The position numbers were made by a program, and so were the translations under genes. Of a stretch of 64,000 nucleotides of DNA, positions 8,738-41,343 are shown piece by piece; the stretch's first letter is position 1, and the number at the start of each line of letters is the position of its first letter. The notes beneath the pieces are model-generated. The model was not told the DNA's origin. It worked only from the letters and a program-made list of their open reading frames with translations, and searched no databases. The DNA comes from Acidobacteriota bacterium (GTDB lineage Bacteria > Acidobacteriota > Vicinamibacteria > Vicinamibacterales > 2-12-FULL-66-21), in assembly GCA_003223835.1 (NCBI GenBank), contig QHWR01000040.1, positions 15,134 to 79,133 on the forward strand, given 5' to 3'.

Positions 8738-10687
<1,950 letters not shown>

Positions 10688-13705: not shown

Positions 13706-13734
13706 GAACTCTCTACCCGATTCGAGTGTGGCAC

Positions 13735-13764
13735 TTCTGCGATCGAGGCAATTCTGCGATCGAG
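13735..13764 (+). promoter_or_regulatory. Two direct copies of the 13-mer TTCTGCGATCGAG, 17 bp apart (candidate regulator site)
   Basis: Copies at 13735..13747 and 13752..13764 are identical. Each contains the CGATCG palindrome. They lie ~45-75 bp upstream of the -35 element at 13807. Confidence 0.4.
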
Positions 13765-13806
13765 AAAACAATTTTGCGTCACGCGACAAAAGTCGCGCGT
13801 TAACTC

Positions 13807-13836
13807 TTGACTGCCGCGGCCCGCGGCAGTTATTGT
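13807..13836 (+). promoter_or_regulatory. Sigma-70-like promoter TTGACT-N18-TATTGT whose spacer is a perfect 21-nt palindrome
   Basis: TTGACT at 13807..13812 and TATTGT at 13831..13836. The palindrome ACTGCCGCGG-C-CCGCGGCAGT at 13810..13830 spans the spacer. A GGAGG RBS (13885..13889) and ATG 13894 follow about 55 nt downstream. Confidence 0.55.
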
Positions 13837-13893
13837 CTCGCTTCCCGAAACTTTCGTTCTCGTTCACAGCCGAACGACACCATCGGAGGTTCG

Positions 13894-16800
13894 ATGCGTG
13901 TGTCCGATTTGGCGCGCGACGGGAGCGACACCGCCACTGCGCGCTCGAGTGTGCGCCACGGGTGTCGATTCCGCGCGCTGCCGCTTTATCTTGTTCTCGC
14001 GCTGACATCGATCGCGGCGTTCAGCGCCAATGCATTTGGCGCCGGCCCGCCGATGTACACAGTCTACGGACCGCGGTCATTCGTGCGCAGCACCGGACAC
14101 TCCTCTCCGGTTTCCGAGACCTTCACCGTTCGGAGTCCCGGTTCCACGAGCACCCTGCGAATCGTGAATCACGGCATCACGAGCGCTCAGGTCGCCGTCA
14201 ACGGGCAGGTCGTGTTCGAGCCGCCGGACTTTCAGGGCAGCGACAAGATCGATCCGCTGCTGATGGAGCGGCCCGTCGTCCTGCGATCCGGCGCCAACCA
14301 GCTGACCGTCGAACTGCAGAGCGGACCCGGAAATCACCTGACGATTGAGGTCGTCACGACCGACGTCATCGCGCCGCGGATCTCCGCGGCGGCGAATCCG
14401 CCGGCGAACACCGCCGGCTGGAACAACGCGGACGTCACCGTCACCTTCACGTGCGCGGACGACGAGTCCGGCATCGCGGCGTGTCCGGCCCCGGTGCTCG
14501 TGAGCACGGAAGGCGCGCAGCAGATCGTGTCGGGCACCGCGGTCGACAAGGCGGGCAACACGGCCGTCGCCAGCCTGACGGTGAACCTGGACAAGACCGC
14601 GCCGGTCGTGACGGCGACCGTGTCGCCGGCGGCGAATGCGAACGGATGGAACAACGGGCCGGTCGTCGTCCATTTCGATTGCGCGGACGGGGGGTCTGGC
14701 GTGCCGGCCTGCCCGGCCGACAGGACGGTCACGAACGACGGCGCCGGCCAGACCGTGAGCGAAACCGCGACGGACAGAGCGGGCAATTCAGCGTCGGTGA
14801 CGAGCGCGGCGTTCAACATCGATCGGACGCTTCCGGCAATCACCGTGGCGTTGACGCCTGCCCCTGGCGGATGGCTGAAGACGCCGGTGACGGCGCATTT
14901 CACGTGCAATGACGCCGGATCCGGCGTCGACACGTGCCCGCCGGATAAAACCGTCGCGTCCGAAGGGGCCAGCCAGACCGTCACCGGGACCGTGACCGAC
15001 AGGGCCGGCAACGTCGCATCGGTGACGAGCGATCCGTTCGACATCGACGTCACACCGCCGGCCGTGACCGTCACGCTCAATCCGCCGCCCAACGCGGCGG
15101 GCTGGAACAACACGGAGGTCACGGCGCATTTCACCTGCGCCGATGCAGGCTCCGGCGTGATCGTGTGTCCGGACGACCAGGTGATTTCCACCGAAGGGGC
15201 CGCGCAGACCGTCACCGGCCGGGCGTTCGACAACGCGGGGAATACCGTGATCGGATCCGCGACGGTCAACATCGACAGGACCGGTCCCGTCCTCACGCTC
15301 TCGTCGCCGACGGATGGCTCGACGCTGTTCACGGCGACGGCGACGGTGACCGGCACGGTCGCCGACACGCTGTCGGGGGTCGCCGCCGTCACCTGCAATG
15401 ACGCGCCGGCGACGATGACGCAGGGTCAGGTGCAGTGCGACGTCACGCTCGAGCGGGGCGCCCACCCGATCCTCGCGACGGCCACCGACGTCGCGGGCAA
15501 CCAGAGTACGGCCCGCCTCGGGTTGAGCTACGTGCGCGTGCCGCAGGTCACGATCTCGGCGCCGTCGAATCTGGGCTACGTGAGCATGAGCCCGACCACC
15601 GTCACCGGTACGGTTGACGATCCGACGGCGACGGTCACGGTCAATTCGATTGCCGCGCCCGTCATGAACGGCGCGTTCAGCATCGTGCTGCCGCTCGCCG
15701 AGGGGCCGAACGTCATCACTGCGAGCGCGAACACGGCGGAAGGGGGCGTCGGCACCGCGAGCGTCACCGTAACCCTCGATACCACGCCGCCGCACGTCAC
15801 GATTACCTCTCCGCCCGATCAGTTTGTGACCACCGAGGCGTCGATCTCGATCGCCGGCAGCGTCAACGACATCGTCGTGGGGACCGTGAACGACCAGCAG
15901 GCGCAGGTGAAGCTGGAGGTGAGCGCCAGAGAGTTCGTCGCGCAGGTCTCCAACCGCACGTTTCTCGCGACCGCGGTCCCGCTCGCGCTCGGACCGAACA
16001 CGATTCTGGCGCGGGCCATCGATCGCGTGGGCAATTCCGCGGACACGCACATCATCGTGACGCGGCGCGCGCCGACGCAGGCGCAGATCAAGCTGCTCTC
16101 AGGCAACAACCAGTCGGGCACGATCGGCGCCACGGTCGCCGCGCCGCTCGTCGTGGCGCTCACCGATGCGGCGGGCAACCCCGTGGCGAACGAGCAGGTC
16201 ATCTTCAAGGTCACGCAGAACGACGGCCTCGTCGCGAGCGGCGGCCCCCCCGCGGCGACGGTGATTGCGACGACCGACGCGCAGGGTCAGGCGCGCGCGC
16301 AGTGGACGCTCGGGCATCGCGCGGGGGCGGGGGGCAACGCCGTCGAAGCGTACTCGGTCGGGTTCGACGGCACGGCGCTCTTCACCGCGACCGGCCAGCA
16401 GGGCGCCGGCAGCCGCTGCCGAAGCCGTTCATCGCGGTCGTCGTCGACGACGGCAACAACCGTCTGTCGCGCGTGCCGGTCACCTTCGCCGTGAAGCAGG
16501 GCGGTGGCAGCTTCGACGGCAATCCGACGGTGACCGTGGAGACCGATTCCGACGGCCGCGCCGCGGCGACGCTCACGCTCGGCGTCCAGGAAGGGAACGC
16601 GAACAACCTCGTCGAGGCGGATTTCGCCTTCAACGAAGGCTTCGCGGCGGCGTTCACCGCCTCGGGCCGCGCGCCCGGGGATCCGACGGCGACGACGATC
16701 TCGGGCGTCGTGCTCGACAACAGCAACGTCCCGATTCCGGGTGTCACCGTCCGCGCGGTGTTGACGAACGTGCTGCACTCCAACCTCACGTCGGTCCAGT

Positions 16801-18212
16801 CCGCAACCGCGGTGCAGACGAACGCGGAAGGACAGTTCTCGATTCCGCAGGCGCCGGTCGGCTTCGTCAAACTGCTCGTCGACGGATCGACGGCGTCGCT
16901 TCCGGGCAAATACCCGTCGCTCGAGTACGACGTCGTGACGGTCGCGGGCCAGAACAACACCGTCGGCCAGCCGATCTACCTGCTTGCGTTGAGCGCCGCG
17001 AACCAGCTCTGCGTGACCGCCACCACGGGCGGCGGGACGCTGACGATTCCGGAGGCGCCGGGCTTCTCGCTGACGTTCGGTCCCGATCAGGTCACCTTCC
17101 CCGGCGGATCGAAGAGCGGCTGCGTCAGCGTCACGGTCGTTCACGGCGACAAGGTGCCGATGGTCCCCGGCTTCGGCCAGCAGCCGCGATTCATCGTGAC
17201 GATTCAGCCGTCGGGCGCGGTCTTCAATCCGCCCGCGCCGATTACGCTGCCCAACGTCGACGGCCTGAGGCCGCGCGAAGTCACCGAGATGTACTCGTTC
17301 GATCACGACATCGGATCGTTTGTCGCGATCGGCACCGGCGTCGTCAGCGACGACGGCTTGTTGATTCGATCGAGTCCGGGCGTCGGCGTCCTCAAGGCGG
17401 GGTGGCACTGCGGAGGCGATCCCAACACGAGCGGAACCGCGGCGACGTGTCCAACCTGCCAGTCGTGTCAGGGCTCCGGCTGCCAGCCCGACGACGGCCA
17501 GTCGTACGACGACGGCAAGTTCTGCACGTCGTGCGACGGCAGATCGCCGGGGGGCGACTGCTGCAAGAACGGCACCCCGACGGCCATCAAGATCGACGAG
17601 CAGGACATCGGGGGCGCCACGCTGCAGGAGTGGGACTTCAGCAAACTGGCCGACATCATCCGGACCGGAACGTCGGTGTTCGAGTACACGCCGGGATGTC
17701 AGATGCCGCCGGTGTCCATCAAGGGCGCGATCAAGCTGACCGGCGTCAAGCAGTGCTGCGAGGAGAAGCAGGACTTCGAAACCGCCTACAAGATGAGCGG
17801 CAGCATCGGCGTCGACGCGATCGGCGTCGAGTGTTCCGTGCCGGGCCTGTCGGTGGACTTCCTCGGCCTGGTCAAGATCGGACTCGTCGCGGGGGTCTCG
17901 CTCGGCGGCGAGTTCTCCGGCAGCGGGATCTCCGGCGGATGCAGCGACTGCAACTGGTCCGTCGACGGAAAGGTTGGCGTGAGCGTCACCGGCAAGGCGG
18001 TGTTCATCACGAAGATCGACCCGAGCGTGATCCGGTTCGAGGGTGGCGTCAAGGGCGACGGCTCCGTATCGGCGTCGTGCAACTGCCAGGGCTGCGGCAA
18101 CCTGAAAGGCTGTCTCGGCCCCGTCTCGGTGTTCGGCACGGTCACGCTCGCGAACTTCATCAGCAAGGGCGGCGAGGTCGTGATTCCGGGCACGCAGATC
18201 TGCACGCATTGA
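13894..18212 (+). pseudogene. Large secreted Ig-like multidomain protein with a Cys-rich C-terminal domain; reading frame breaks near 16405
   Basis: - Start: ATG 13894 after GGAGG, followed by a signal-peptide-like RFRALPLYLVLALTSIAAFSANAFG.
- Repeats: four ~77-aa repeats (approx 14365..15285) with GWNN…V.V.F.C.D..SG…CP…D.AGN.
- Other modules: further Ig-like modules, Big_1/invasin-like modules (LSGNNQSGTIGATVAAPLVVALTDAAGNPV…) and a CarboxypepD_reg-like module.
- Frame change: frame 1 (track 13807..16494) switches to frame 0 (track 16302..18212) at …FTATGQQGAG | QPLPKPFIAVVVDDGNN…. Confidence 0.8.
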
Positions 18213-18226
18213 GGAAGGGAAACGTG

Positions 18227-18811
18227 ATGGGTTGGCCGGCAGGGATCGCGTTGGTGGCGGCGTTGACGGCAGGCGCGGGCGCGCAGGCGCCGAGCCAGGC
18301 GTCGAACACGGTGCGCATCGAGCTGTACCCCGACGCGCAGCCGCGCGCGAACCCCGTGGTGTTGACGTTCACCGGCGAGCAGTACGGCAAGGGCGTGCTC
18401 ATTTCCGCGTCGCCGAGCGGCGGCGGAAAGCCGTCGGACGACGTCGCGTTTCTGAGCACCCTGTTCGCCGCCGACGTCAACGGCACGATCGACGACATCC
18501 TGAAACTGTGGGACGTGCCGGACCGCGACGCGATCCGGCGGACCGCGTCGGATCCGCAGGCGTTCGAGGGGAACCGCAACTTCTATCGCGGCATCACGAC
18601 GTCCATGCTGCTGGCGAAGATGCTGTATGGGCCTTACGAGGTGCTGTTCGTCAAGCACGCGGGGGCGGCCCCCGTCGTCAAGGACTACCCCCTGATCCGG
18701 CGGAACGGGTCCCTGTATCTCACGAACGCGCTGCAGCGCGATCCGCTGTTCGTGTACGTGAGCACGAAGTACGCGCAGACGCTGCAGCAGGCAACGACCG
18801 ATGCGAAGTAA
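18227..18811 (+). CDS. Hypothetical secreted protein (194 aa)
   Basis: ATG 18227 preceded by gaggaaggga. It is in frame with the last 194 codons of track ORF 16265..18811. Has an N-terminal signal-like MGWPAGIALVAALTAGAGAQA. No family recognised. Confidence 0.6.
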   Translation: MGWPAGIALVAALTAGAGAQAPSQASNTVRIELYPDAQPRANPVVLTFTGEQYGKGVLISASPSGGGKPSDDVAFLSTLFAADVNGTIDDILKLWDVPDRDAIRRTASDPQAFEGNRNFYRGITTSMLLAKMLYGPYEVLFVKHAGAAPVVKDYPLIRRNGSLYLTNALQRDPLFVYVSTKYAQTLQQATTDAK

Positions 18812-20468
18812 CGGCTCCCACGTCGGAACCTGCGCGCTGATCCTGGTGTCGGCGCACGTGTGCGCGCTGTACTGCCAGACCCGCGCGACGGATCCGCGCG
18901 CGGCGCAGCCGTCGTCGATCGGCCGCGAAGTCGCGGTGCCGCGGCATCTGCAGGACGGCGAGGAATTCAGCGTTCCCCTCGAGGCGCTGCTCGCGCACGG
19001 GCAGAAGCTGTTCGAGGCGAACTGGACCGACCAGGAGGGGGGTGGCCGGCCGCTGACGAAGGGCACCGGCCGTCCGATCGCCGACCCCACGCGTCCGCTC
19101 ACGGGCACGCGCGCTTTCAACCGCATCTCCGCCCCCGACGCGAACTCGTGCGCCGGCTGTCACAACGCGCCGTACCGCATCTCCGGCGGCGGCGGGGACG
19201 TCGTGACGAACGTCTTCGTCCTCGGCCAGCGCTTCGATTTCATGACGTTCGATCGGGACGACACGCTGCCGACGCGCGGCGCCGTCGACGAAACCGGCAA
19301 GCCGGTCTCGCTGCTCGACGCCGCGGATTCGCGCGCGACGACGGGGATGTTCGGCGCCGGCTATCTCGAGATGCTCGCGCGCCAGATGACCGAGGAGCTG
19401 CAGCGGACGCGCGATACGATCCATCGCGGCGAGACGACGGATCTCGTCGCGAAGGGCATCGCGTTCGGCAAGCTCACGTTGACCGACGCGGGATTGTGGG
19501 ACACCTCCAGGGTCCAGGGGCTCGGGCGCCTCAGCCTGTTGTCCACCGATTCGCACAATCCGCCGACGCTCGTCATCCGTCCGTGGCATCAGGCGAGCAA
19601 CGTCATTTCCCTGCGGGAATTCACGAATACCGCGTACAACCAGCATCACGGCATCCAGTCGACGGAACGGTTCGGCCGCGACACGGATCCGGACGGCGAC
19701 GGCTTCGCCAACGAGCTGACGCGCGCCGACGTCACGGCGGTGACGATGTGGCAGGCGACGCTGCAGGTCCCGGGCCGCGTCATCCCTCGCGATCCCGACG
19801 TCGAAGAGGCGGTGCTCGCGGGCGAGCGTCTCTTCGAACGCATCGGGTGCGCGTCGTGCCACGTCCCGCGCCTGCCGCTCGCGAAGCAGGGCTGGATCTT
19901 CACCGAGCCGAATCCCTTCAATCCGCCAGGCAACCTCCGCAAAGGCGAGACGCGCGATCTGAAGGTCGACTTGTCGAGCGCGCTGCTGCCGGCGCCGCGT
20001 CTGAACCCCGACTCGTCAGGGACGGTGTGGGTCGAGGCGTACACCGATTTCAAGCTGCACGACATCTGCGACGGCGGCGGCCGCGAGCCGCTGGATCAGA
20101 ACCAGTCGCAGTGGTCGAAGAAGCTGATGGACGGCAACTGCCGGTTCCTGACCAAGCGTCTGTGGGGCGCGGCGAACGAAGCGCCGTTCTTCCACCACGG
20201 CCTGTTCACGACGCTGCGGCAGTCGGTGCTGGCGCACGGCGGCGAGGCGCGCGACTCGCGGGTCGCGTTCCAGGCGCTCGCGCCGCCGCAGCGCGACGCC
20301 GTCATCGAATTCCTGAAGACGCTGCAGGTGCTGCCGCCGGGGACGACGGATCGGATCGTCGACGAAACGTTCCACGCGCGGACCTGGCCGCCGCCGCCGA
20401 ACCGATTGACGCAGGGCGAGCCCCGCCTGCAACAGGGGCGGCCCTCGATCCGGGAGCGCCGGCGATGA
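18801..20468 (+). CDS. Di-haem oxidoreductase / putative peroxidase (DUF1111 family), paralog A
   Basis: 555 aa with two CxxCH haem motifs (…DANSCAGCHNAPY… and …RIGCASCHVPRLPL…). Also …FGAGYLEMLARQ… and …PFFHHGLFTTLRQSVLAHGGEA…, typical of the DUF1111 'thiol oxidoreductase' family. Overlaps the upstream gene by 11 nt. Confidence 0.8.
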   Translation: MRSNGSHVGTCALILVSAHVCALYCQTRATDPRAAQPSSIGREVAVPRHLQDGEEFSVPLEALLAHGQKLFEANWTDQEGGGRPLTKGTGRPIADPTRPLTGTRAFNRISAPDANSCAGCHNAPYRISGGGGDVVTNVFVLGQRFDFMTFDRDDTLPTRGAVDETGKPVSLLDAADSRATTGMFGAGYLEMLARQMTEELQRTRDTIHRGETTDLVAKGIAFGKLTLTDAGLWDTSRVQGLGRLSLLSTDSHNPPTLVIRPWHQASNVISLREFTNTAYNQHHGIQSTERFGRDTDPDGDGFANELTRADVTAVTMWQATLQVPGRVIPRDPDVEEAVLAGERLFERIGCASCHVPRLPLAKQGWIFTEPNPFNPPGNLRKGETRDLKVDLSSALLPAPRLNPDSSGTVWVEAYTDFKLHDICDGGGREPLDQNQSQWSKKLMDGNCRFLTKRLWGAANEAPFFHHGLFTTLRQSVLAHGGEARDSRVAFQALAPPQRDAVIEFLKTLQVLPPGTTDRIVDETFHARTWPPPPNRLTQGEPRLQQGRPSIRERRR

Positions 20469-21574
20469 TGCTGCTCCTCTGGACGCTCCTGATCGCGGCG
20501 CAGACGACGTCGGCACCCGGCGCGGCCGCGCGAGCGCCGGCGCCGGCCGATCGCGTCGAGGTCGTGCTGTTCTCCGACTTTCAGTGTCCGTTCTGCGCGC
20601 TGCTCGCGCAGCCGGTCCGCCAACTGGAGACCAAAGGCGTCGAGGGCGTGGACGTCACCGTCCGGTTCAAGAATTTCCCGCTCCCGATCCACCCGCGCGC
20701 GGCGCTCGCGCACCAGGCCGCGCTCGCCGCGATGCGGCAGGGCAAGTTCTGGGAGATGCACGACCTGCTCTTCGCGAACCAGCGCAAGGCGGAGCGCGAT
20801 GACGTGCTGGGATACGCGCGGACGCTGGGGCTCGACCTCGTTCGCTTCCAAAAGGACATCGACAGCGACGAGATCAAGGCGTCGATCGCCGCCGACAAGG
20901 CGGAAGGCGACAGGCGTCGCGTCACGGGAACGCCGACCTACTACATCAACGGCAAGCCGTACGTCGGCGCGCGCTCGTACGAGCAGTTGAAGCAGCTCGT
21001 CGTCGGCGAACAGCGTCGCGCGCGCGCGCTGGCCGACGTGACCGACACGATGGTGAGCCAGGGCGCGTCGGACGCGCCCGTGATCATCGAATTGTTTGCG
21101 GACCTCGAGAGTCCCATCAGTCCGTCGGCGGTGCGCGTGGTCGACGAGGTCATGGCGCGATATCCCGCGGAGGTTCGCGTGCAGTTCCGCAACCTGCCGC
21201 TCGCGTTCCATCCCGGCGCGGCGCTCGCGCACGAAGCGGCGATGACCGCCGCGAAGGCGGGGCGGTTCTGGGACTTCGCGCGCGGCGTGCTCGCGCGGCG
21301 GCAGCCGGCGACGGACCGCGACCTGATCGCGCTCGCCGGCCGCCTCGGCCTCGACGAGGCGGCGTTCGCCGACACGCTGCGCCAGCATCGCTACGCGGCG
21401 CGCGTGGACGCCGACCTCGACGTCGCGCGCACCCGCGGCGTGCGCGGCAGTCCGGCTCTGTTCGTCAACGGCAGGCGGATCGACGGCGTTCCGACGCTGG
21501 CCGTCCTGACCCAATACGTCGAAGCAGAACTCATGGCGAGGCACGTCGGGCGCCTGGAACAACACTCATCGTGA
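20465..21574 (+). CDS. Tandem DsbA-like thioredoxin-fold protein (two domains; the second lacks the CxxC)
   Basis: ATG 20465 overlaps the upstream stop (ATGA).
- Signal: MMLLLWTLLIAAQTTSAPG.
- Domain 1: …VEVVLFSDFQCPFCALLAQP…FKNFPLPIHPRAALAHQAALAAMRQGKFWEMHDLLF…
- Domain 2: …VIIELFADLESPISPSAVRV…FRNLPLAFHPGAALAHEAAMTAAKAGRFWDF… (SPIS in place of CPFC). Confidence 0.8.
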   Translation: MMLLLWTLLIAAQTTSAPGAAARAPAPADRVEVVLFSDFQCPFCALLAQPVRQLETKGVEGVDVTVRFKNFPLPIHPRAALAHQAALAAMRQGKFWEMHDLLFANQRKAERDDVLGYARTLGLDLVRFQKDIDSDEIKASIAADKAEGDRRRVTGTPTYYINGKPYVGARSYEQLKQLVVGEQRRARALADVTDTMVSQGASDAPVIIELFADLESPISPSAVRVVDEVMARYPAEVRVQFRNLPLAFHPGAALAHEAAMTAAKAGRFWDFARGVLARRQPATDRDLIALAGRLGLDEAAFADTLRQHRYAARVDADLDVARTRGVRGSPALFVNGRRIDGVPTLAVLTQYVEAELMARHVGRLEQHSS

Positions 21575-30500: not shown

Positions 30501-33500
30501 CGCGACGGGCCAGGTGATCCGTCTCGTGCCGTCGGCGCCGCTGCTGCCGAACAATTACTACTACTACCAGGTGAGCACCGCGATCCGCGGAACGAACGGC
30601 CTGACGCCGCAGAACCAGGGTTCCTGGTACTTCTACACCGCGACGACGAGCGATACGATCGCGCCCGGCGTCCTGTCGGTGACGCCGCCTGCCGCCGCGA
30701 TCAACGTCGGCGACAACGCGCGCATTGTCGTGCGCTTCACCGAGCCGGTGAACACGCTCACGGTGAACGCGGCGACGCTGTCGGTAAGGGGCACGACGCC
30801 GATCGCCGGCGCGCTCAGCTTCGCCAACCAGAATCAGGACGTGTATCTGGAGCCGTTCACGCCGCTGCCCGACGGGCAGGTCCTGACGGTGGCGATCGAC
30901 GGCGTGACCGACGTCGCGGGGAATCCCGTCGCGGCGGTGACGTCGCAGTTCGCCGTCGGCGCCGGACCCGACGTGGCGGTGCCGGTGGTGCTCGCCATCA
31001 ATCCGGTGAACGGCCTCACGAACGTGCCGACGAACGTGGCGGTCTCGCTGCTCCTGAACGAGCCCATCGATCCGAGCTCGGTGACGCGCTCGAGCCTCCA
31101 GATCTACGACAACGTCGTCGGCCAGGTGAACGGCGCCTACACGGTGAGCAGCGACGGCCGCACGGTGACGTTCGTGCCGGGCGCGCCGCTCGGCGTGAGC
31201 CGCTCGCACAGCGTGTACTTCGCCAATCAGGGGATGACCGACCTCGCCGGCAATCTGGTGAACGGGTCGGGCTTCTCGAACTTCAGCTTCACGACGGGCG
31301 CGTCCGCGAACACGACGGCGCCGCAGGTGGTCGGGATCAGCCCGGCGGATCAGCTGACCGACGTCTCGCGCAACGTGCAGGTCGTCGTCGATCTCGATCG
31401 CCCGATCGACACGCTGACGGCGTCGCAGATCACGCTTGCGGCGAGCAGCGGAACGATCCCGGTCATCATGACGTTCGCCAACGGCGACCGCCGGATCACG
31501 CTGACGCCGATCGCGCCGCTGGCGGCCGCGACCGCCTACACCGTCACCGTGGGCGCGATTACGGATCTCAGCGGGATTCCGCTCGCCACGCCGGTGGTCA
31601 GTCATTTCACGACCACGACCGGCGTCGATCTGAACGGACCGCAGGTGAGCGTCGTCAGCCCGATCAACGGTGGAACGGGTGTGCCGACGAACGCGCTGAT
31701 TCAGCTCGGGTTCACCGAGCGCATGAATCCGCTGACCGTCAACGCCGGCACGTTCCGGCTCTATCCGCAGGCGACGGGGATTGTGATTGCCGGATCGTAC
31801 TCGGTCGCCGCCGACGGCCGGAGCGCGACGTTCACGCCGTCCGCGCCGCTGGCGCCGTCGACCGCCTACTACATCGACGTCAACGGCGTCGTGGATCTGA
31901 CCGGACAGGCCGCCTCGACGTTCACGAGCTTCACGACCGGGACAGCCGCGCAGGTCGCGCGGCCGACGGTCGTCACCGTCAGTCCGGCTGACGGCACGTC
32001 GGACGTGCCGCTCAACGCCAAGGTGTCCATGCTCGTGAGCGCGGCGATCAGCCCCGTGACGATCGGGAGCATGGCCGTCACGTTGTCGGCCAACGGCAGC
32101 AGCGTCGCCGGATCGATCTCGCTCAGCGCGGATCGCAGACAACTGACGCTGACGCCCGCCGCCGCGCTGGCGCCGAATACCACTTACACGGTGTTCGTCG
32201 GCGGCTTCGCGGACGTCGCCGGCAACCTCGTGCTGCCGTTCGGCAGCACGTTCACGACCGGGACCGCGGCGACCGACACCGGGCCGCTCGTCGTGAGCGC
32301 CTTCACCCCGGCGAACGGCACCCAGAACGTGCCGGTGAACAGCACCGTCGTCGTCCGGTTCAACAAGGCGGTCAGCCCGGTGACCGTCAACACGAACACG
32401 ATCGTGGTGTCGTACGCCGGCGTCAGCCACGTGGCGGGCGCCTACGCGGTCAGCGGCGGCACGGTGACGTTCACGCCGGCGAGCCCGTTCCCAGGCAATA
32501 CCAGCATCTCGGTGCAGGTGACGGGCGTCCAGGATCTGATCGGCAACGCGAACGGGTTCGCGTCCGCCTCCTTCGTGACGGCCGCCGTGGCGGATACGAC
32601 GCCGCCCGAGGTGGCGAGCGTGACGCCCGCCGACGGATCGGGCGACGTCGGCCTCAACGCGCAGGTCGTCGTGACGTTCTCCGAATCGCTGAATCCCGCG
32701 ACGGTGAGCAACAACACGTTCGCGTTGTTCGCCAACGGCATCCGCATCGGCAACATCGCGTCGGTGTCGGCCGACAACCGGACCGTCGTGCTGAGCGGCG
32801 GCACACTGCCGGCCGCGAGTCTCATCAGCCTCGTCATCACGAGCGCCGTTCGTGACCTCGCCGGGAACGCGCTCGCGGACTTCGTGAGCGGGTTCACCAC
32901 CGAGGATGCGCCCGACACGTCACGGCCGAGCATCGTGAGCCAGCGGCCGGCGAACGGCGCGAGCGGCGTGTCCGCCGCGAGCGGCGTCGTCCTGTTCGTC
33001 AGCGAGCCGCTCAACCCCGCAACCGTCGGGGCGGCGATCCACGTCTCGCAGAACGGCGTGCTCGTCGACGGGACGGCGCAGGTGACCGGCAACGGGCAGG
33101 TGATTCAGTTCCAGCCGGCCGTGGCGTGGGCGCCGAACGCGCTGATCCAGGTGTTCCTCGACGGCAACGCACAGGATCTGCAGGGCAACGCGCTCAACTC
33201 GTACCAAAGCTCGTTCCGGATCGCCGTCGATCCGCAGACCGCCGCGCCGGTCGCGACCGCGGTGAGCCCGGCGTACGGCTCGCAGAACGTGCCGCTGAAT
33301 CCGAGCATCGCCGTCGGTTACAACCAACCGCTCGATCCCGCGACGGTCAATACGTCCACGGTCAGCCTGAACGGCCCCGCGGGCAGGGTCAACGCGTCGG
33401 TCGGCCTCGATTCGACGGGAACGGTGATTCGGATCCTGCCCGTTGACGCGAGCAACAACCGGGTCGATCTGGCGCCCAACGCGTTCTACTACTACCAGAC

Positions 33501-34878
33501 GAACGGGATTCGCGGCACGAACGGCGTCGCCGCGCAGAATTCGGGCTACTGGTACTTCTACACGGGCACCGATCGCGACGCGACGGCGCCGTCCGTGCGC
33601 GCCATCACGCCGCCGGCGGGCTCGACGAACGTCGGCGACAACGCTCGCATCGTCGTCCGCTTCTCCGAGCCGCTGAATCCGTTGACGGTGAACAATGGGA
33701 CGATCGCGGTGACGGGCGCCGCGGCTGTGACGGGCTCCTTCAGTTTCGCCAACCAGAACAAGGATGTGTATCTCGAACCGTACGCGCCGTTGCCGGATAG
33801 CCAGACGCTCACGATCACGATCGCGGGCGTGACCGACGTCAGCGGCAACGCGGTGACCACGACGACCGCTCAGTTCGGCGTGGCGGCGGGCCCGGACGTC
33901 GCGGTGCCGGTCGTCCTGGCGGAAAACCCGGTCGGCGGGCTGACGAACGTGCCGACGAACGCCGTCGTCTCGCTGCTGCTGAACGAGCCGATCGATCCGG
34001 GCTCGGTGACCACCTCCACGATGCAGGTGTACGACAACGTTCTCGGCAAGCAGGTCGCCGGGAGCTACGCCGTCAGCAGCGACGGACGGACGATCAGCTT
34101 CGTGGCCGACTCGCCGCTCGCCGCGAACCACAGCCACAGCGTGTACTTCGCCAATCAGGGGATGACGGATCTGGCGGGCAACCTCGTGAACGGCAGCGGC
34201 TTCTCGAACTTCAGCTTCACCACCGGATCGACGGCGGACCTCACCGGACCGCAGGTCACCGCCATCAGCCCGGCGGATCAATTGACGAACGTGCCGCGCA
34301 ACGGGTCCGTCATGATCGGGTTCGATCGGCCGATCAACACGCTGACGGCATCGCAGATCACGCTTGCCACCGCGGCCGGAACGCCCGTGCCGGTCGCGAG
34401 GACGTTCTCGAACGGCGACGCGCGCGTCACGCTGACGCCGCTCGCGCCGCTGTCCGCCTCGACTTCTTACAGGGTCACGGTAGGCGCCGTCGCGGACCTG
34501 ACCGGCACCGCGCTGGCGACGCCGGTGGAGAGCCGCTTCACCACCGGCACCGGGGCCGATCTGACGCCGCCCGTGGTCACGAGCGTGTCGCCGATCAACG
34601 GCGCGCAAAACGTGCCGACGAACGTCGTCGTCCAGGTCACGTTCAACGAGCGGATGAATCCGCTGACGATCGCGCGCTCGACGTTCCAGGTGATCGATCA
34701 GAGCACCGGCATCGCGATCGCGGGCGACGTCGTCGTGTCGTCCGACGGCTTGACGGCGGCGTTCATTCCGGCGGCGGCGCTGACGCCGTCGGCGGGCTAC
34801 TATGTGCAGGGCTCCGGATGGGCGAACCTGGCGGGCCTGCAGACGAGCGTGTTTACGAGTTTCAGAACGGGTCAATGA
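21571..34878 (+). CDS. Giant (4,435 aa) secreted multidomain Ig-repeat protein: Big_2, TSP3-like Ca-binding repeats, LVIVD propeller repeats, then ~31 SbsA/Big_5-like Ig modules
   Basis: Uninterrupted 13,308-nt ORF. The GTG start overlaps the upstream stop (GTGA). Signal peptide MTTTATRFVRLLALVLLAVCPARETFAQ. Domain calls come from motif reading (see findings). The long antisense ORFs across it are Arg-rich shadows. Confidence 0.92.
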   Translation: MTTTATRFVRLLALVLLAVCPARETFAQLNENCTVSVLNRNVRVNPDGTWVLPNVPANFGPVRARATCIIDGRTISGESEPFLVPPNGAVNVPRIVFGELTPIPTTVTVTAPASLLTALGSTLQLTVTAAYANNTTRDVTAEATGTQYTISNSAIATVSGNGLVTAVKAGIVLVQATHEGASGLISIRIAPSNADADGDGIPDDVEVALGLNPQDPTDAAEDFDRDGLTNLQEYLLGTDIRKADTDGDGLTDGDEVARGTNPLLRDTDGDGISDGLEVQTGSNPLDANSYNLAAALTSVTVAPAQFVLTFNTILGDVTLQLKVTGHLKDGSTIDLTSTRRGTNYNSSNLNVCNFGATDGMVFAGEEGSCTITATVATFTASSSGNVHKFSPKPLSFVDLGGPGNNIDVSGDYAYVAVGAAGLKVVNVSDRKTPQIVATLSLPGTANDVKLAGTRAYVAAGAAGLHIVDVSNPIAPRLIGTFDTAGSANDVRSNGNLAFVADGSAGLAIIDVSTPDTPRLIGALSGIGTANGVDVVGGLALIANGSMLRVVDVSNPANPRSIGTVNLPGDAQDVVARGTTAYVADYTGSLQVVDFTTPTAPVVVGTTTQALGGILYDVAVSGNFVFGADIFFVNGVPIVDVTNPHSPIPRAILDFRQFRDDNGSGIAADGSYVYLTTLEGRLYIGQYRLLEDLYGVAPTVSISAPAPGATFVEGETIPVSVVATDDVSVTAVTLEVDGAAAATDTTAPYQFTVTAPHGATGVTLGASAVDLGNNVGVAADIQVAVTPDPLTTAAGRVVDRNGTPVGGATVSCLAHTGVTTPDGAFAIPGLPTIQPTVLCTADYVDAQGITQHGASARVPPVRGGMTQVGDIRLLAVPVIASITPKAIDSFRPPTTLHVTGVNLTGATFAFVSDTTPIVTAGTPQIDAGGTSATLPINVTFGAQGTLVLTATNSVGTSETFATAGNSLVVLSLTPAGDADNDGLTNEYELAIGTDPTSPDTDHDGIPDGWEVRFGLNPLDAADANQDADGDGATNLEEFAAGTSPVNPHTVPPAVAEVFPANGATNYPTNGVVIVRFDEPLLTAVAIDVAKQALGAALPASQSQVDLTAAAQALQAYLRTHGEGDTVVPGTVRVRRNGIDVAGAVTLSNDKLSITFTPSQALLASSLYTVTVAGVRDAAGNPMTQAFESVFTTGQSGDTSAPRVLLTNPSSGMSGVPVNAPVTVQFTKRLDPATLTAQSFAAYDNFTGQQVAGMIQMEPSGLVASFVPQTTWAPGRSFSVYLNTDIKDSAGNRLQSYSFSFSTAFFADAQGPHIVGTSPADGDTNVPLNVPIVVQFDEAVNTIRGAAGVQVFAQGQPIPGSIALSDGNRRITFTPASALAPNTAYTIVPSAQLTDIAGNLVAAFTNATFTTGAAADNTTPSVTAVSPANGAGGVPTNTVVQLSFNEPINRLTVNAATFVVYPQATGIPVAATYAVSADGRNATLIPASPLVSLTGYYVSMSGISDAVGHATSTFTSFTTGAAADTAPPTVVAISPAGGATNVPLNARVVVRLSEPINPSSATTAAVKLTAGGNAAAATVALSADRLTITLTPGAPLAASTLYTVKVSGLTNLAGLEVVAATSTFTTGTAASGPQLAVTSFTPANNSVNVPVDSPILVTFNAPIDPTSVNVNSVFVFVSGAGAVSGTFAVQGNSVTYTPVSSFPGNTTVSVQVSGVLDVAGHGNNFASMSFRTVAAPDTTAPAVISVTPGDGAMGIGLNAQVVVTFSESVNPSTVNNNTIALFANGGRFGNIAGISADNRTVVLNGGMLPASSVVTVALTSAIQDLSGNRLADFTTAFTTAPPFDTARPSVVSQRPGNGASGVAAGTRIVLFLSEPLDATTVPSALHVSQNGALVDGVVQVSGNGQVIQFFPAEPWAGNALVQVFLDTTARDLQGNSVSAYQASFRTAADPQTTRPVVTAVSPVYGAGNAPLNTVVTIGYSLPLDPATVTATTVTMTGPAGAVNIAVTLDATGQVIRLVPAGPLVANSYYFYQTTAAIRGINGLAPQNPGSWYFYTGGPLDATAPAVRSITPPPAAVSVGDNARIIVRFTEQVNPLTVNGTTLSVAANASVPTSVTFSNQNMDVYLEPYAPLPDGQSVTVAIAGVTDIAGNPVTATSAQFTVGAGPDVKPPTTLAENPVNGLTNVPINAVVSLLFNEPIDPSSVTPGAFQVYDNVVGQVSGSYTVSGDGRLVTFVQAKPFGIDRSHSVYFANQGITDLAGNLANGSGFSNFSFTTGVSANVTGPQVIGISPADQLTDVSRNAQVVIDFDRPINTLTAPQIALSAAGSPVATFTSFSSGDRRVTLTPVNPLAAATVHAITIGAITDLSGAPLATPVVTQFTTAPGVDLVGPQVTSVSPANGATSVPTNTVVQLTFSERMNPLTVNGSTFQVYPQATGLPVAGVYVVASDGRSATFTPSAALSASTGYYISVSGIADLTGQGANTFTSFATAAGPQIARPTVAGISPPDGATNVPLNGRVVVRMSEPVSPLSLNAEALTLSAAGSLVPAAVALSGDRLTLTLTPNAPLTASTTHTVAIAHLTNVVGAEVLPVTSAFTTGTTTAGSNSLTVSSIAPANGAQNVPVDSTVRVTFSTAVDPTSVNVNTVTIYLSGVTNLAGSYVVQGATVTFTPLNPLPGNTTISVQVSGVVDFAGHGNNYTNISFKTAAVPDTTAPTVVSITPSEGATGVGPNAQVVIAFSESLNAATVRNNTVALFVNGARFGNVVSVSADARTVVLGGGTWPASSLVTVALTSAVQDVSGNPLADFTSTFTTAPAFDTARPSVVSQRPANGSSGVAASTDVVFFLSEPLDPATVPDAVHISENGVLVDGTVQVSGNGQVIQFAPAEPWAGGALIQVFLESSARDRNGNSVFAYQASFRTASDPQTTRPAPTAVSPVYGASNVPLNTAITIGYNVPLDPATVTTSTVTMSGPAGAVSAAVSLDATGQVIRLVPSAPLLPNNYYYYQVSTAIRGTNGLTPQNQGSWYFYTATTSDTIAPGVLSVTPPAAAINVGDNARIVVRFTEPVNTLTVNAATLSVRGTTPIAGALSFANQNQDVYLEPFTPLPDGQVLTVAIDGVTDVAGNPVAAVTSQFAVGAGPDVAVPVVLAINPVNGLTNVPTNVAVSLLLNEPIDPSSVTRSSLQIYDNVVGQVNGAYTVSSDGRTVTFVPGAPLGVSRSHSVYFANQGMTDLAGNLVNGSGFSNFSFTTGASANTTAPQVVGISPADQLTDVSRNVQVVVDLDRPIDTLTASQITLAASSGTIPVIMTFANGDRRITLTPIAPLAAATAYTVTVGAITDLSGIPLATPVVSHFTTTTGVDLNGPQVSVVSPINGGTGVPTNALIQLGFTERMNPLTVNAGTFRLYPQATGIVIAGSYSVAADGRSATFTPSAPLAPSTAYYIDVNGVVDLTGQAASTFTSFTTGTAAQVARPTVVTVSPADGTSDVPLNAKVSMLVSAAISPVTIGSMAVTLSANGSSVAGSISLSADRRQLTLTPAAALAPNTTYTVFVGGFADVAGNLVLPFGSTFTTGTAATDTGPLVVSAFTPANGTQNVPVNSTVVVRFNKAVSPVTVNTNTIVVSYAGVSHVAGAYAVSGGTVTFTPASPFPGNTSISVQVTGVQDLIGNANGFASASFVTAAVADTTPPEVASVTPADGSGDVGLNAQVVVTFSESLNPATVSNNTFALFANGIRIGNIASVSADNRTVVLSGGTLPAASLISLVITSAVRDLAGNALADFVSGFTTEDAPDTSRPSIVSQRPANGASGVSAASGVVLFVSEPLNPATVGAAIHVSQNGVLVDGTAQVTGNGQVIQFQPAVAWAPNALIQVFLDGNAQDLQGNALNSYQSSFRIAVDPQTAAPVATAVSPAYGSQNVPLNPSIAVGYNQPLDPATVNTSTVSLNGPAGRVNASVGLDSTGTVIRILPVDASNNRVDLAPNAFYYYQTNGIRGTNGVAAQNSGYWYFYTGTDRDATAPSVRAITPPAGSTNVGDNARIVVRFSEPLNPLTVNNGTIAVTGAAAVTGSFSFANQNKDVYLEPYAPLPDSQTLTITIAGVTDVSGNAVTTTTAQFGVAAGPDVAVPVVLAENPVGGLTNVPTNAVVSLLLNEPIDPGSVTTSTMQVYDNVLGKQVAGSYAVSSDGRTISFVADSPLAANHSHSVYFANQGMTDLAGNLVNGSGFSNFSFTTGSTADLTGPQVTAISPADQLTNVPRNGSVMIGFDRPINTLTASQITLATAAGTPVPVARTFSNGDARVTLTPLAPLSASTSYRVTVGAVADLTGTALATPVESRFTTGTGADLTPPVVTSVSPINGAQNVPTNVVVQVTFNERMNPLTIARSTFQVIDQSTGIAIAGDVVVSSDGLTAAFIPAAALTPSAGYYVQGSGWANLAGLQTSVFTSFRTGQ
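25819..34878 (+). repeat. Intragenic tandem super-repeat: a ~2.9-kb (nine Ig modules) unit, about 3.1 copies
   Basis: Unit starts:
- 25819: TPSVTAVSPANGAGGVPTNTVVQLSFNEPINRLTVNAATFVVYPQATG
- 28726: GPQVTSVSPANGATSVPTNTVVQLTFSERMNPLTVNGSTFQVYPQATG
- 31636: GPQVSVVSPINGGTGVPTNALIQLGFTERMNPLTVNAGTFRLYPQATG
- 34564: TPPVVTSVSPINGAQNVPTNVVVQVTFNERMNPLTIARSTFQV
Spacings are 2907, 2910 and 2928 nt. The copies have diverged (roughly three-quarters aa identity by eye). Confidence 0.85.
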
Positions 34879-36398
34879 GCCGCCGAACGCCGGGCGCGTT
34901 GTGGACTCTCGCGCTCGCCGGTTCCGTGCTGTCGACGTGGGAGACCGCCGCGCAGTCGCGGCGTCCGGCGTCGCGGATCGGCCAGGAAACGGCGGTCGCC
35001 CGGCACCTGCGAGACGGCGAGGAGTTCAGCCTGCCGCTCGCCGCGCTCGTCGATCACGGCCGCATACTCTTCTCGGCGAACTGGACCGCGCAGGACGGCG
35101 GCGGCCGGCCGCTCGCCAAGGGCACCGGAGAAGCGCTGTCGGACCGCGCGCGGCCTCTCGAGGGTACGCGCGCGTTCAACCGGATCTCCGGTCCGGATGC
35201 GAACTCCTGTCAGGGCTGCCACAACGCGCCCTTCGGCATCACGGGCGGCAAGGGCGACGTCGTCACGAACACGTTCGACGCGGCCGAACGGTTCGACTTC
35301 GCGACGTTCGATCGCACCGACAAGCGGAGCACCGTCGGAGCCGTTGACGAACAGGGCCGTCCGGTCTCTCTCCAGACCGTTGGCGGCGAGCGTTCGACGC
35401 CGGCGCTGTTCGGTGCCGGCTACGTCGAGATGCTGGCGCGGCAAATCACCGCCGACCTGCAGCGGACGCGCGACGCGACGCAGCCCGGCCAGACGCGTCC
35501 GCTGCTGTCGAAAAGCATCTCGTTCGGGACGCTCGCGCGTCGCGCCGACGGCGCCTGGGACGTCAGCCGCGTCGAGGGTTTGCCCCGCGCCAGCGTCGTC
35601 ACGTCGCGTCCCGGCGACAAGCCGAGCCTCGTGCTGCGGCCGTGGAACCACGCCGGCACGGCGGTGTCGCTGCGCGAGGTCACCAACACGCAGTTCAATC
35701 TGCACCACGGCATGCAGTCGTCGGAACGGTTCGGCGCCGGCGTCGACGCCGATCGAGACGGCGTCGCCGACGAGCTGACGCGCGCCGACATCACGGCCGT
35801 CAGCGCATTCGAAGCGACGCTGCCCGTGCCGGGCCGCGTGATTCCGAACGATCCGGACGTCGAAAAGGCTGTCTCGATCGGCGAGCGCCTCTTCGCGCAA
35901 ATCCGGTGCAGCGCCTGCCACATGCCATCGCTGCCGCTGGATCATAAAGGATGGATCTATTCGGAGCCGGGGCCGTACAATCCGCCACGCAACCTGCGCC
36001 GCGGGACCGTGCGGGTGCTCGACGTCGATCTGACGAGCGCGCTGCTGCCGCCGCCCCGCTTGACGCCGTCTATCGCGGACCGGGACGTCGTTCAGGTGCC
36101 GGCGTATTCGGATTTCAAGCGCCACGATCTCGGCGACGCCGGCGGTCCGTTTCTCACGGCCCGCCTCTGGGGGATCGCGAACGCGCCGCCGTACTTCCAT
36201 CACGGCCTCTTCACGACGATGCGGCAGGCCGTGCTGGCGCATGGCGGGGAGGCCCTGGAGCAGCGCGAGGCGTTCCGGCAGCTCTCCGCGCCGGATCAGG
36301 ATGCGCTGATCGAATTCCTCAAGACGCTGCAGGTGTTGCCGCCGGGGACCAAAGATCTCGTCGTCGACGAACACTATAAAGCCCGAAGCCAACCATGA
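34875..36398 (+). CDS. Di-haem oxidoreductase / putative peroxidase (DUF1111 family), paralog B
   Basis: ATG 34875 overlaps the giant gene's stop (ATGA). Colinear with paralog A (…DANSCQGCHNAPF…, …QIRCSACHMPSLPL…, …PYFHHGLFTTMRQAVLAHGGEA…). It lacks a ~20-aa Cys-containing stretch that A has (DICDGGGREPLDQNQSQWSKKLMDGNC). Confidence 0.8.
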   Translation: MSRRTPGALWTLALAGSVLSTWETAAQSRRPASRIGQETAVARHLRDGEEFSLPLAALVDHGRILFSANWTAQDGGGRPLAKGTGEALSDRARPLEGTRAFNRISGPDANSCQGCHNAPFGITGGKGDVVTNTFDAAERFDFATFDRTDKRSTVGAVDEQGRPVSLQTVGGERSTPALFGAGYVEMLARQITADLQRTRDATQPGQTRPLLSKSISFGTLARRADGAWDVSRVEGLPRASVVTSRPGDKPSLVLRPWNHAGTAVSLREVTNTQFNLHHGMQSSERFGAGVDADRDGVADELTRADITAVSAFEATLPVPGRVIPNDPDVEKAVSIGERLFAQIRCSACHMPSLPLDHKGWIYSEPGPYNPPRNLRRGTVRVLDVDLTSALLPPPRLTPSIADRDVVQVPAYSDFKRHDLGDAGGPFLTARLWGIANAPPYFHHGLFTTMRQAVLAHGGEALEQREAFRQLSAPDQDALIEFLKTLQVLPPGTKDLVVDEHYKARSQP

Positions 36399-37146
36399 TC
36401 GCCCTTACGCGCAGCGTGCCTCCCAGCATCACCCGCTGCGAGTTGACGCACGTCGCGCGGCAGCCGATCGATTACCACCGCGCGCGCGCGCAGCATGCGG
36501 CGTACGAGCGCGCGCTCGAGACGCTGGGATGTCGCATTCAGCGTCTTCCCGACACGCCCGATCTGCCGGATTCCGTCTTCGTGGAGGACGCCGCCGTCGT
36601 CTTCGACGAGATTGCGGTGCTGACGCGGCCCGGCGCCGCCTCGCGGCGTCCCGAGATCGAATCCGTCGCCGCCGCGCTCGAGCCGCAGCGGAGCCAGGCA
36701 CGCTCGACGGCGGAGACGTGCTCACGGTCGGCAAGACCGTGTACGTCGGGTTGTCGCGCCGCACCAACGCCGACGGCGCGCGGCAGCTCGAACACGCCGT
36801 GGCGCCGTTCGGCTATCGCGTCGTGCGCGCGGCCGTCGACGGATGTCTGCACCTGAAGTCCGCCGTGACGGCGGTGAGCGACGGCGCGGTGTTGCTCAAC
36901 CCCGCGTGGATCGATCCGCGCGTTTTTGCCGCGCACGATCGCATCGACGTCGATCCGTCGGAGGCCGCGGCCGCCAACGTCCTGCGCGTCGGCGATCGCG
37001 TGCTCGTTGCCGCGGCATTTCCACGCACCAACGATCGAGTGGGGCAGCGCGGCGCGCAGATCGCGATCGTCGACGTCTCGGAGGTCGCGAAGGCCGAAGG
37101 CGCGCTGACCTGTTGCAGCATTCTGGTTCGGACGGTTGGATCGTGA
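36395..37146 (+). pseudogene. ddaH: Dimethylarginine dimethylaminohydrolase-like amidinotransferase (DDAH), frame broken near 36690
   Basis: - N-terminal part (track 36395..): MIALTRSVPPSITRCELTHVARQPIDYHRARAQHAAYERALETLGCRI…SVFVEDAAVVFDEIAVLTRPGAASRRPE…ALEPQR.
- C-terminal part, in another frame (track 36529..37146): PGTLDGGDVLTVGKTVYVGLSRRTN…DGCLHLKSAVTAV…AKAEGALTCCSILV (catalytic Cys).
- About 6-8 codons seem to be missing at the junction.
- The ATGA start overlaps the upstream stop. Confidence 0.8.

Positions 37147-37462: not shown

Positions 37463-41343
<3,881 letters not shown>

Follow-up and report, generated by a model that had tools for sequence, protein, structure and literature searches.

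What kind of system is encoded where two very large Ig-domain proteins, two di-haem proteins and a thioredoxin-fold protein follow each other in one tightly packed row of genes? The question was raised by a locus in a 64,000-nt stretch of an Acidobacteriota genome of the order Vicinamibacterales (contig QHWR01000040.1, positions 15,134 to 79,133), which is referred to as the window. A preliminary description made from the sequence had read the row as a seven-gene, translationally coupled operon and had suggested a maturation module for surface proteins or an extracellular redox apparatus. The reading favoured here, with a probability of roughly 0.6, is that the region encodes an effector cassette of the polymorphic-toxin type, whose conservation centres on Acidobacteriota and which has grown larger in the lineage of the window. 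The genes and their parts were located as follows.

13894..18212, + strand: Ig1, polymorphic-toxin-like carrier with domains assigned by Pfam; reading frame interrupted after 16407
17400..17423, + strand: junction motif G-W-H-C-G-G-(D/N)-P, the boundary between the conserved body and the variable tail of Ig1
17424..18212, + strand: window-type tail, consisting of a Cys-knot linker CPxCxxCxGxxC and a Cys/Gly-rich domain; candidate effector or toxin module
18227..18811, + strand: small exported protein of 194 aa with signal peptide MGWPAGIALVAALTAGAGAQA; candidate cognate immunity protein
18801..20468, + strand: DHOR-A, exported di-haem c-type protein (PF06537) with CxxCH at residues 117 and 350
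20465..21574, + strand: tandem DsbA-like thioredoxin-fold protein with signal peptide; Pfam DSBA (PF01323) in two stretches, 135 bits
21571..34878, + strand: LVIVD-propeller surface protein of 4,435 aa, domains assigned by Pfam
25828..34802, + strand: three tandem super-repeats of ~2.9 kb with ~9 Big_5 domains each; self-blastn offsets of 2907 and 5817 nt, 70-72% identity
34875..36398, + strand: DHOR-B, second di-haem protein (PF06537) with CxxCH at 112 and 345 counted from ATG 34875 (131 and 364 in the longer open reading frame)
36395..37146, + strand: DDAH-type dimethylargininase gene, frame-broken at 36689/36690, no signal peptide

A carrier protein with interchangeable ends

Ig1 comprised a signal peptide, five repeats of ~75 aa with Cys pairs 10 residues apart, and Glucodextran_B, Big_1, OmpL47-type and CarboxypepD_reg domains (Pfam/NCBIfam). 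In the AlphaFold2 model, its body ended in a conserved beta-sandwich 'pre-toxin' domain. The model was confident up to the junction motif and disordered at residues 331-341 just after it. A search with the C-terminal 596 residues yielded 551 homologues, most of which aligned over the first ~65% of the query only. Homologues were near-identical up to ...PGVGVLKAGWHCGG(D/N)P and unrelated after the short CPxCxxCxGxxC linker. In an alignment of 58 of them, mean pairwise identity was 73-77% across the 140 residues before GWHCGG and 17-20% beyond, with G327, W328 and G332 invariant and C330 and P334 nearly so. The Cys-rich end of Ig1 had been noticed before, and its 22 Cys in the last ~400 residues were counted again; 20 of them lay past the junction, in the last ~270 residues.

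Related contigs or proteins compared with the window are denoted by locus names (L001-L094) or P-numbers. Using the pattern G[WFY]HC[GSA]G, tails were located in 32 loci, and at least 17 unrelated types were present. Pfam matches above the cut-offs were obtained for VanY (29.5 bits), Peptidase_M15_3 (24 bits) and the 3D domain (38.7 bits), all of them peptidoglycan-cleaving families. Precomputed Pfam matches to the group XII phospholipase A2-like family (PLA2G12) were present on five homologues, in which the HD-CY motif was visible, and five tails held an HExxH motif. The linker and most tails were rich in Cys (14-30 residues). A conserved carrier with a sharply bounded hypervariable C-terminus and C-terminal domains from toxin or lytic families (VanY, M15, 3D, PLA2G12, HExxH), both characteristic of polymorphic toxins, were thus found in the Ig1 family. 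Judged from these sequences, Ig1 is a carrier of interchangeable, putatively lytic or toxic C-terminal modules, a property that had escaped the preliminary description.

The tail type of the window was also found in L019, L026 and L037. It was represented by 39 sequences among 1.84 billion proteins and was placed at the extreme C-terminus of all long carriers except P0380; in six of the six carriers scanned, it was borne by the Ig1 scaffold. The AlphaFold2 model of this tail showed about eight long beta-strands with a pLDDT of 73. Its comparison with the PDB returned nothing significant, and the top matches, barrels and pore-formers with E values of at least 0.1, were not counted as evidence.

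The open reading frame (ORF) behind the tail changed with the tail. The small protein of the window had no Pfam or NCBIfam family match, and its signal peptide, seen by eye, agreed with its earlier labelling as secreted. Its homologues were found solely behind window-type tails and behind all four of these (window, L019, L026 and L037), and other tails were followed by a different ORF or none. One family of ~390 aa was located behind three of four phospholipase A2-like tails, the exception being L040, and the five LLHE-type HExxH tails had no ORF before the next conserved gene. Among the 21 loci having such an ORF, no downstream family was shared by different tail types (Fisher's test on locus pairs, p ~1e-12, the pairs not being independent). 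Co-variation of the downstream gene with the toxin domain, a further characteristic of polymorphic toxins, was therefore present in these 21 loci, for which a protective role of the ORF may be proposed. The small protein, whose link to the tail had also been missed before, co-varies as an immunity gene would and is a candidate for one. The four window-type loci fell in different DHOR subclades, and sister DHORs (L011/L014; window/L007) adjoined different tails or downstream ORFs. This pattern argues for module swapping and not for simple descent.

A conserved cassette and its constant partners

Scanning one genome per species for DHOR gave 80 loci, mostly from Acidobacteriota. Vicinamibacterales held the best match (79%), and Blastocatellia/Pyrinomonadaceae, Bryobacterales, Acidobacteriaceae and Thermoanaerobaculia were represented. 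Further loci belonged to Verrucomicrobiota, Chloroflexota and a few metagenome-assembled genomes labelled Proteobacteria. In ~45 of the 80 loci, DHOR adjoined the Ig1 body and/or the LVIVD core, the latter matching the first ~800 residues of the giant protein (tblastn and ORF clustering). Where the contig extended far enough, an Ig1 homologue accompanied the LVIVD core, often with the tandem DsbA. The conserved unit, present in dozens of metagenome-assembled genomes of Acidobacteriota and in a few labelled Proteobacteria, consisted of four to five genes, namely Ig1, the variable small ORF, DHOR, usually the tandem DsbA, and the LVIVD-propeller protein. Two orders were observed: Ig1-small-DHOR-DsbA-LVIVD, as in the window, and Ig1-small-LVIVD-DHOR(-DsbA). 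The same gene sets were recovered from precomputed Pfam labels on metagenome contigs. Of the gene order described previously, this four- to five-gene cassette is conserved, but the full seven-gene order is not, the giant size, the second DHOR and the DDAH gene being specific to the lineage. That the arrangement is not a described system was supported, as no account of the cassette was found in the literature searched on DUF1111, LVIVD, di-haem oxidoreductases and polymorphic toxins.

The flanks of the cassette differed in every genome, which indicates that it is self-contained. They were often of defence or mobile type, with nSTAND/SIR2, OLD-UvrD, AbiE, relaxase, integrases, transposases and a group II intron reverse transcriptase in L087, L090, L093 and L094. 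Ig1 of L094 was followed by genes for an integrase and an IS91 transposase, and L093 lay in a region rich in mobile elements. In L090, a HepT/MNT pair separated DsbA from the LVIVD gene, and a second paralogue of the latter came next. A family of ~200-375 aa was encoded directly upstream of Ig1 in L019, L022, L024, L042, L051 and L077 and was absent from the window; its copy in L022 (2709-3302) ended in a PEP-CTERM-like signal (VPEPGTILLVAAGLALLRRR).

Both di-haem proteins scored above the PF06537 cut-off of 22 bits (DHOR-A 49.0 bits, DHOR-B 43.9 bits), although the family profile aligned merely to their last ~90 residues (profile positions ~407-499 of 499). With two CxxCH motifs each and 59% identity to one another, they are the DUF1111 paralogues that they had been taken for. 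Hydrophobic signal-like segments were visible by eye at both N-termini, the haem motifs were separated by ~230 residues, and both motifs were invariant in 31 DHOR homologues. DHOR-A also held a 20-residue insertion (EPLDQNQSQWSKKLMDGNCR) with one Cys, which was missing from DHOR-B and immediately preceded the conserved RLWG...PFFHHG region. Homologues of DHOR-A numbered more than 4,800, thousands of them metagenomic at >70% identity. No solved structure was related to DHOR by sequence in phmmer searches. When a profile of the 31 DHORs was compared with the PDB, the sole matches were bCCP and MauG, with marginal E values of 0.004-0.3 (MauG at least 0.01), and in these matches the two haem motifs and the C-terminal PFFHHG region aligned in a colinear way.

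The neighbour-joining tree of 91 DHORs comprised a cassette clade, a stand-alone clade and a small deep clade. Nearly all members of the cassette clade with enough flanking DNA showed the cassette context, and the stand-alone clade had no recurrent neighbour. The deep clade was formed by DHOR-B, the second DHORs L012.1, L091.1 and L092.0, and L084.0, the context of which was not visible. The second DHORs of L012, L091 and L092 directly followed enlarged LVIVD proteins of 1,755, 2,366 or 3,461 aa. Bracketing of a giant protein by two DUF1111 genes, as claimed at first, thus recurs around the enlarged LVIVD proteins of these three loci but does not belong to the conserved core, to which the second DHOR and the giant size were added in a lineage-specific manner. 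By these sequence relationships, the bracketing pair represents a sub-type that recurs, and the two DHORs are old paralogues. Genes for imelysin/EfeO-like or DUF1513 proteins were found neither in the window nor as recurrent neighbours in ~85 related loci, in agreement with the earlier view that this is not an imelysin-type DUF1111 system.

The DsbA-like protein consists of two domains, as had been stated. The CPFC motif at residue 41 belonged to domain 1 only, domain 2 had no Cys, and the CPFC pattern was the same in 12 homologues. In 12 cassettes, DsbA was encoded at most 400 nt downstream of DHOR, and when present it never occupied another cassette position. Its best NCBIfam match, below the cut-off, was the Rcas_1661 thioredoxin-like (seleno)lipoprotein family; selA, encoding selenocysteine synthase, was located ~4 kb downstream of the operon (41434-42924, - strand).

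The giant protein of 4,435 aa had been singled out for its size. Its conserved core, residues 1 to ~1000, held an N-terminal Cys domain, Big_2, TSP3, six LVIVD blades, Big_7 and a CarboxypepD_reg-like domain, and 31 Big_5 stretches made up the remainder. Solely the first ~800 aa were conserved in other loci. Since the homologues typically measured 1,100-1,400 aa, the Big_5 stalk is a lineage-specific extension, and the triplicated 2.9-kb block, which occupies the 3' two-thirds of the gene, indicates that the present size arose by tandem duplication. Repeats of this length are prone to assembly collapse or expansion. The mature N-terminus of the LVIVD proteins (QLNENCTVSVLNR) was conserved across phyla. 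Their C-termini (L010-L087) varied, with at least two recurrent end types such as ...NANMQIYAANVLAW... and ...GGINVTVRRRG..., and the LVIVD partner may therefore be modular as well. Weak NCBIfam matches to CglD, MtsD and Amuc_1099 were confined to the TSP3 repeats and were disregarded.

The DDAH gene was not conserved with the cassette. It had no tblastn match in the 80 DHOR loci, and other genes followed DHOR-B in L092. In L091, the gene after DHOR-B was incomplete and had no Pfam match, and the next gene in the P0242 contig was unannotated. The two frame fragments reached 95 and 146 bits against NF045660 (DiMthArgaseDdahStm), below its full-length cut-off of 340. At the level of the family (amidinotransferase/DDAH fold), the assignment is sound. 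The gene is probably a passenger outside the conserved system. Maturation by Arg modification, one of the roles first considered, is unlikely, because a protein without signal peptide would have to act on exported proteins.

Layout of the operon and breaks in the assembly

The window had a G+C content of 68%, and ORF lists and third-position GC plots showed a continuous row of genes on the + strand from 13.8 to 37.1 kb, as described. All six junctions were read directly from the sequence and were as claimed; together with the promoter-like site they were located at the following positions.

13807..13836, + strand: promoter-like site TTGACT-18-TATTGT, putative; single sigma-70-like match within 13400-22000 (8.6 kb)
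stop 18210-18212, ATG 18227, + strand: Ig1 to small ORF, 14-nt gap
ATG 18801, stop 18809-18811, + strand: small ORF and DHOR-A, 11-nt overlap
20465, + strand: DHOR-A and DsbA, 4-nt start/stop overlap ATGA
21571, + strand: DsbA and LVIVD giant, 4-nt start/stop overlap GTGA
34875, + strand: LVIVD giant and DHOR-B, 4-nt start/stop overlap ATGA
36395, + strand: DHOR-B and DDAH, 4-nt start/stop overlap ATGA

The promoter placed at 13807 was recovered as a sigma-70-like site, and no second site of this kind that could separate the genes was found in 13400-22000. Terminator-like hairpins were not more frequent than in shuffled sequence. The picture of a tightly coupled unit was upheld, and much of the unit is also conserved in other genomes. 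A perfect 10-nt inverted repeat (ACTGCCGCGG / CCGCGGCAGT) was present at 13810-13830, inside the spacer of the promoter-like site, and positions 13723-13756 held a tandem direct repeat of 17 nt; each is a candidate binding site for a regulator. An Rfam scan revealed no riboswitch or other RNA family within or adjoining the operon, the sole match in the window being a tRNA at 55694-55765. Upstream of the row lay the nuo operon. A gene for a TonB-dependent receptor, starting 317 nt past the operon, and selA were located downstream, and the remainder of the window was of housekeeping character.

Two genes of the row were broken. The reading frame of Ig1 shifted at ~16400, where 49 nt after base 16407 were lost relative to the sister contig L001. 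The 49 extra bases of L001 restored one continuous Big_1-type repeat, and L002 had a run of Ns at the same site. With this patch, Ig1 measured 1,455 aa from ATG 13894. The earlier account of an Ig-domain protein of ~1,440 aa with paired Cys was accurate for repeats and Cys, but not for a single intact ORF. In the same way, the DDAH family had been recognised properly, but the gene is not intact in the window. It was split over two frames by 19 nt missing between 36689 and 36690, and the copy in L006 was intact with 256 aa. The sister contigs came from the same soil project and were >99% identical to the window. Pseudogenes or programmed frameshifting were rejected for both breaks because the lost 49 and 19 nt are present in sister assemblies, with Ns at the first site in one of these, and both breaks were treated as assembly or population artefacts and not as biology.

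Similar irregularities were seen around the operon. The assemblies were also separated by small indels upstream, with 20-29 gaps per 4-5 kb. The TonB-dependent receptor (CarboxypepD_reg, Plug and OMP_b-brl_4) was distributed over two ORFs, 37463-38929 and 38938-41343, and is probably a further assembly problem; L006 had N runs at ~38.1 and ~38.85 kb in this region. In the nuoL/nuoM region (8738-12281), an ORF of 1,157 aa overlapped a differently framed Proton_antipo_M ORF (11292-12281), which suggests additional frame errors in the nuo operon.

Proposed function and relation to known systems

The abrupt junction, the tails of lytic enzyme families and the downstream ORF that tracks them amount to the layout of a polymorphic toxin-immunity system. 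In the mechanism proposed, Ig1, the small protein, DHOR-A, DsbA, the LVIVD protein and DHOR-B would all be Sec-exported, as judged from signal peptides recognised by eye. Ig1 would form a long Ig-domain stalk that ends in the beta-sandwich domain and the GWHCGG(D/N)P junction, behind which recombination would have installed different disulfide-rich effector modules in each strain. The effectors of other genomes would be peptidoglycan hydrolases (VanY, M15, 3D), phospholipase A2-like or HExxH metallopeptidase-like, and the Cys/Gly-rich beta-hairpin domain of the window may attack membranes. The small exported protein would neutralise its neighbouring tail in the periplasm of the producer and so confer immunity.

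The disulfides of linker and tail would be made by DsbA, and the oxidative-folding role already suggested for this protein fits the Cys-rich nature of both. DsbA is linked to DHOR because it is always the next gene when present. DHOR, a putative remote relative of bCCP and MauG, could be the source of oxidising equivalents, used either to re-oxidise DsbA or to modify or process Ig1 at the Trp-His-Cys junction, where the (Asp/Asn)-Pro bond is a plausible cleavage site. The LVIVD-propeller protein would act as an unvarying partner at the surface and display or deliver the effector, in the window with a stalk of ~31 Big_5 domains and a second DHOR, and DDAH would be an unrelated cytoplasmic passenger. 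A bolder version, offered tentatively and rather unlikely as it stands, holds that DHOR, tandem DsbA and the LVIVD protein constitute a new maturation-and-delivery route for polymorphic toxins, in which DHOR would cross-link the junction oxidatively or trigger toxin release and the propeller would serve as surface launcher. If true, it would be the first redox-enzyme-dependent toxin delivery system and would provide the first protein substrate for the DUF1111/DHOR family.

Several observations weigh against an effector cassette. Toxicity, immunity, secretion and export beyond the periplasm are candidate functions deduced from gene content, as are all roles given to DHOR, DsbA and the LVIVD protein, and the cassette contains no known outer-membrane secretion component. 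The window-type tail was recognised by no Pfam toxin family and had no significant fold match. In the six carriers scanned, it was confined to the Ig1 scaffold and not borne by Rhs, CdiA or type VI secretion system carriers, unlike many polymorphic toxin domains. In eleven of the 32 cassettes, the tail was followed by the next conserved gene without an intervening ORF, and immunity is thus not universal. Ig1 occurred without DHOR in L093 and L094. Many cassettes lacked DsbA, and close DHOR relatives (57-62% identity) existed without any cassette context. The latter imply that DHOR chemistry need not be toxin-specific; taken together, both findings suggest that it is probably general and was co-opted in the cassette. 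The DHOR-DsbA fusion P0010 was considered as a Rosetta-stone link and rejected, as the join removes the CPFC half and is probably a deletion.

Among the alternatives, the one that survives best is close to the initial proposal, namely a module for oxidative folding and cross-linking of two structural surface proteins, such as adhesins or matrix and S-layer-like fibres, that act without antagonism. Both large proteins are built of adhesin-typical Ig-like, TSP3 and propeller domains. The fold search with the C-terminal model of Ig1 returned generic tandem-Ig matches only, with the S-layer protein SlaB, pilins and adhesins as the best. Oxidative folding would suit the presence of DsbA and of Cys-rich regions, and the 31-domain stalk suggests reach and not catalysis. 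However, such a module leaves unexplained the drop from ~75% to ~20% identity at one motif, the peptidoglycan hydrolase, phospholipase A2-like and HExxH tails and the co-varying downstream ORF, and it was considered unlikely.

Even less credence was given to a metal or peroxide redox apparatus akin to known DUF1111 operons, in which DHOR and the LVIVD propeller would oxidise a metal or consume H2O2 at the surface, with the TonB-dependent receptor in the pathway. The family assignment of DHOR and the general chemistry suggested by its stand-alone orthologues speak for it, as does the receptor gene 317 nt downstream, and a known DUF1111 operon likewise pairs a haem protein with a beta-propeller (bioRxiv 10.1101/072470). 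However, an imelysin/EfeO-like gene is lacking in the window and related loci, LVIVD differs from DUF1513, the receptor was near DHOR in just 6 of ~80 loci, and variable tails or partner ORFs would have no role in such an apparatus.

A protein-derived cofactor system, in which DHOR would oxidise Trp or Cys of Ig1 or of the LVIVD protein to a redox cofactor, appears very improbable. It is modelled on the maturation of methylamine dehydrogenase. In the mau cluster, the genes for a beta-propeller heavy chain and a Cys-rich light chain are accompanied by those for the di-haem MauG and the thioredoxin-like MauD. The cassette combines components of the same four kinds, the Trp-His-Cys at the Ig1 junction is invariant, and MauG and bCCP are the sole PDB matches of the DHOR profile. 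The MauG matches are marginal, however (E of at least 0.01), Ig1 and the LVIVD protein have no homology to amine dehydrogenase subunits, variable enzymatic tails would be unexpected in a dehydrogenase, and the analogy is drawn from general knowledge of the mau cluster. Least probable of all is an incidental packing of independent genes, for which the non-conserved DDAH and the short overlaps common in GC-rich genomes could be adduced, since Ig1, LVIVD, DHOR and DsbA are found together in several classes and phyla, in two orders and with differing flanks, the cassette DHORs are monophyletic, and in four independent contigs an enlarged LVIVD gene is followed by DHOR-B.

If the cassette is an effector system, its consequences reach beyond the window. 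Acidobacteriota are among the most abundant soil bacteria, and little is known about their competition. The cassette was present in at least five acidobacterial lineages and, if antagonistic, would be a widespread unstudied system, bringing with it several new candidate families of effectors and immunity proteins as well as a carrier scaffold and a junction motif that are both new. It also provides a testable setting for DHOR/DUF1111, one whole clade of which is inherited with a Cys-rich exported protein and DsbA. For annotation, the 'giant adhesin' and the 'hypothetical Ig protein' of such loci should be read together.

Comparison with described systems places the cassette between several of them. 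To giant Ig-repeat adhesins of the Big_5/SbsA or RTX type, the window giant is similar in its long stalk produced by recent tandem duplication and in its Ca-binding TSP3 repeats. It differs in having no recognisable C-terminal anchor or type I secretion signal, and in the LVIVD family the conserved part is the N-terminal propeller core, mostly without a long stalk.

Members of the bCCP/MauG superfamily with protein substrates are MauG, which acts on pre-methylamine dehydrogenase, and BthA (PMC6405878). DHOR shares with the superfamily two c-type haems and a weak, colinear similarity over the haem motifs and the C-terminal PxFHxG region, and the genes adjoining its own encode a thioredoxin-fold protein and a candidate protein substrate. 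The similarity is marginal (E 0.004-0.3), however, and the ~230-residue spacing of the haem motifs exceeds that of the matched CCP chain.

The canonical DUF1111/DHOR operon consists of EfeO-like, DUF1111, EfeO-like and DUF1513 beta-propeller genes and was proposed to function in ferrous-iron uptake (bioRxiv 10.1101/072470, PMC3143127). The likeness is an exported di-haem PF06537 gene adjoining a beta-propeller gene. In contrast to this operon, the cassette has no imelysin/EfeO-like genes and includes Ig1 and DsbA as partners, its propeller is of the LVIVD type within a multidomain protein of >1,000 aa, and PF06537 aligns to the last ~90 residues of its DHORs.

Polymorphic toxin-immunity systems such as CdiA-CT/CdiI, Rhs and MafB (Zhang et al. 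2012, PMC3482391) are similar to the cassette in their large exported carrier with conserved body, their lytic or toxic modules and the variable downstream gene that tracks the module. Pfam and NCBIfam scans of Ig1 detected no two-partner secretion (TPS), Rhs, PAAR/VgrG or LXG trafficking determinant, but only the Ig-like, OmpL47-type and CarboxypepD_reg domains and the Sec signal. In CdiA, a VENN motif marks the switch to the variable C-terminus, and GWHCGG(D/N)P takes its place here. TPS/CdiB, Rhs/YD repeats, PAAR/VgrG and LXG/WXG are all missing from the cassette, and a third of its loci have no ORF in the immunity position. Its constant partners are instead the di-haem DHOR, the tandem DsbA and the LVIVD propeller; the terms LVIVD, DsbA and peroxidase do not occur in the survey of Zhang et al. 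(PMC3482391). Among these systems, the cassette probably belongs with the polymorphic effector systems, and its accessory genes for a DHOR, a DsbA and a propeller protein form a set for which no earlier link to such toxins was found in the literature searched.

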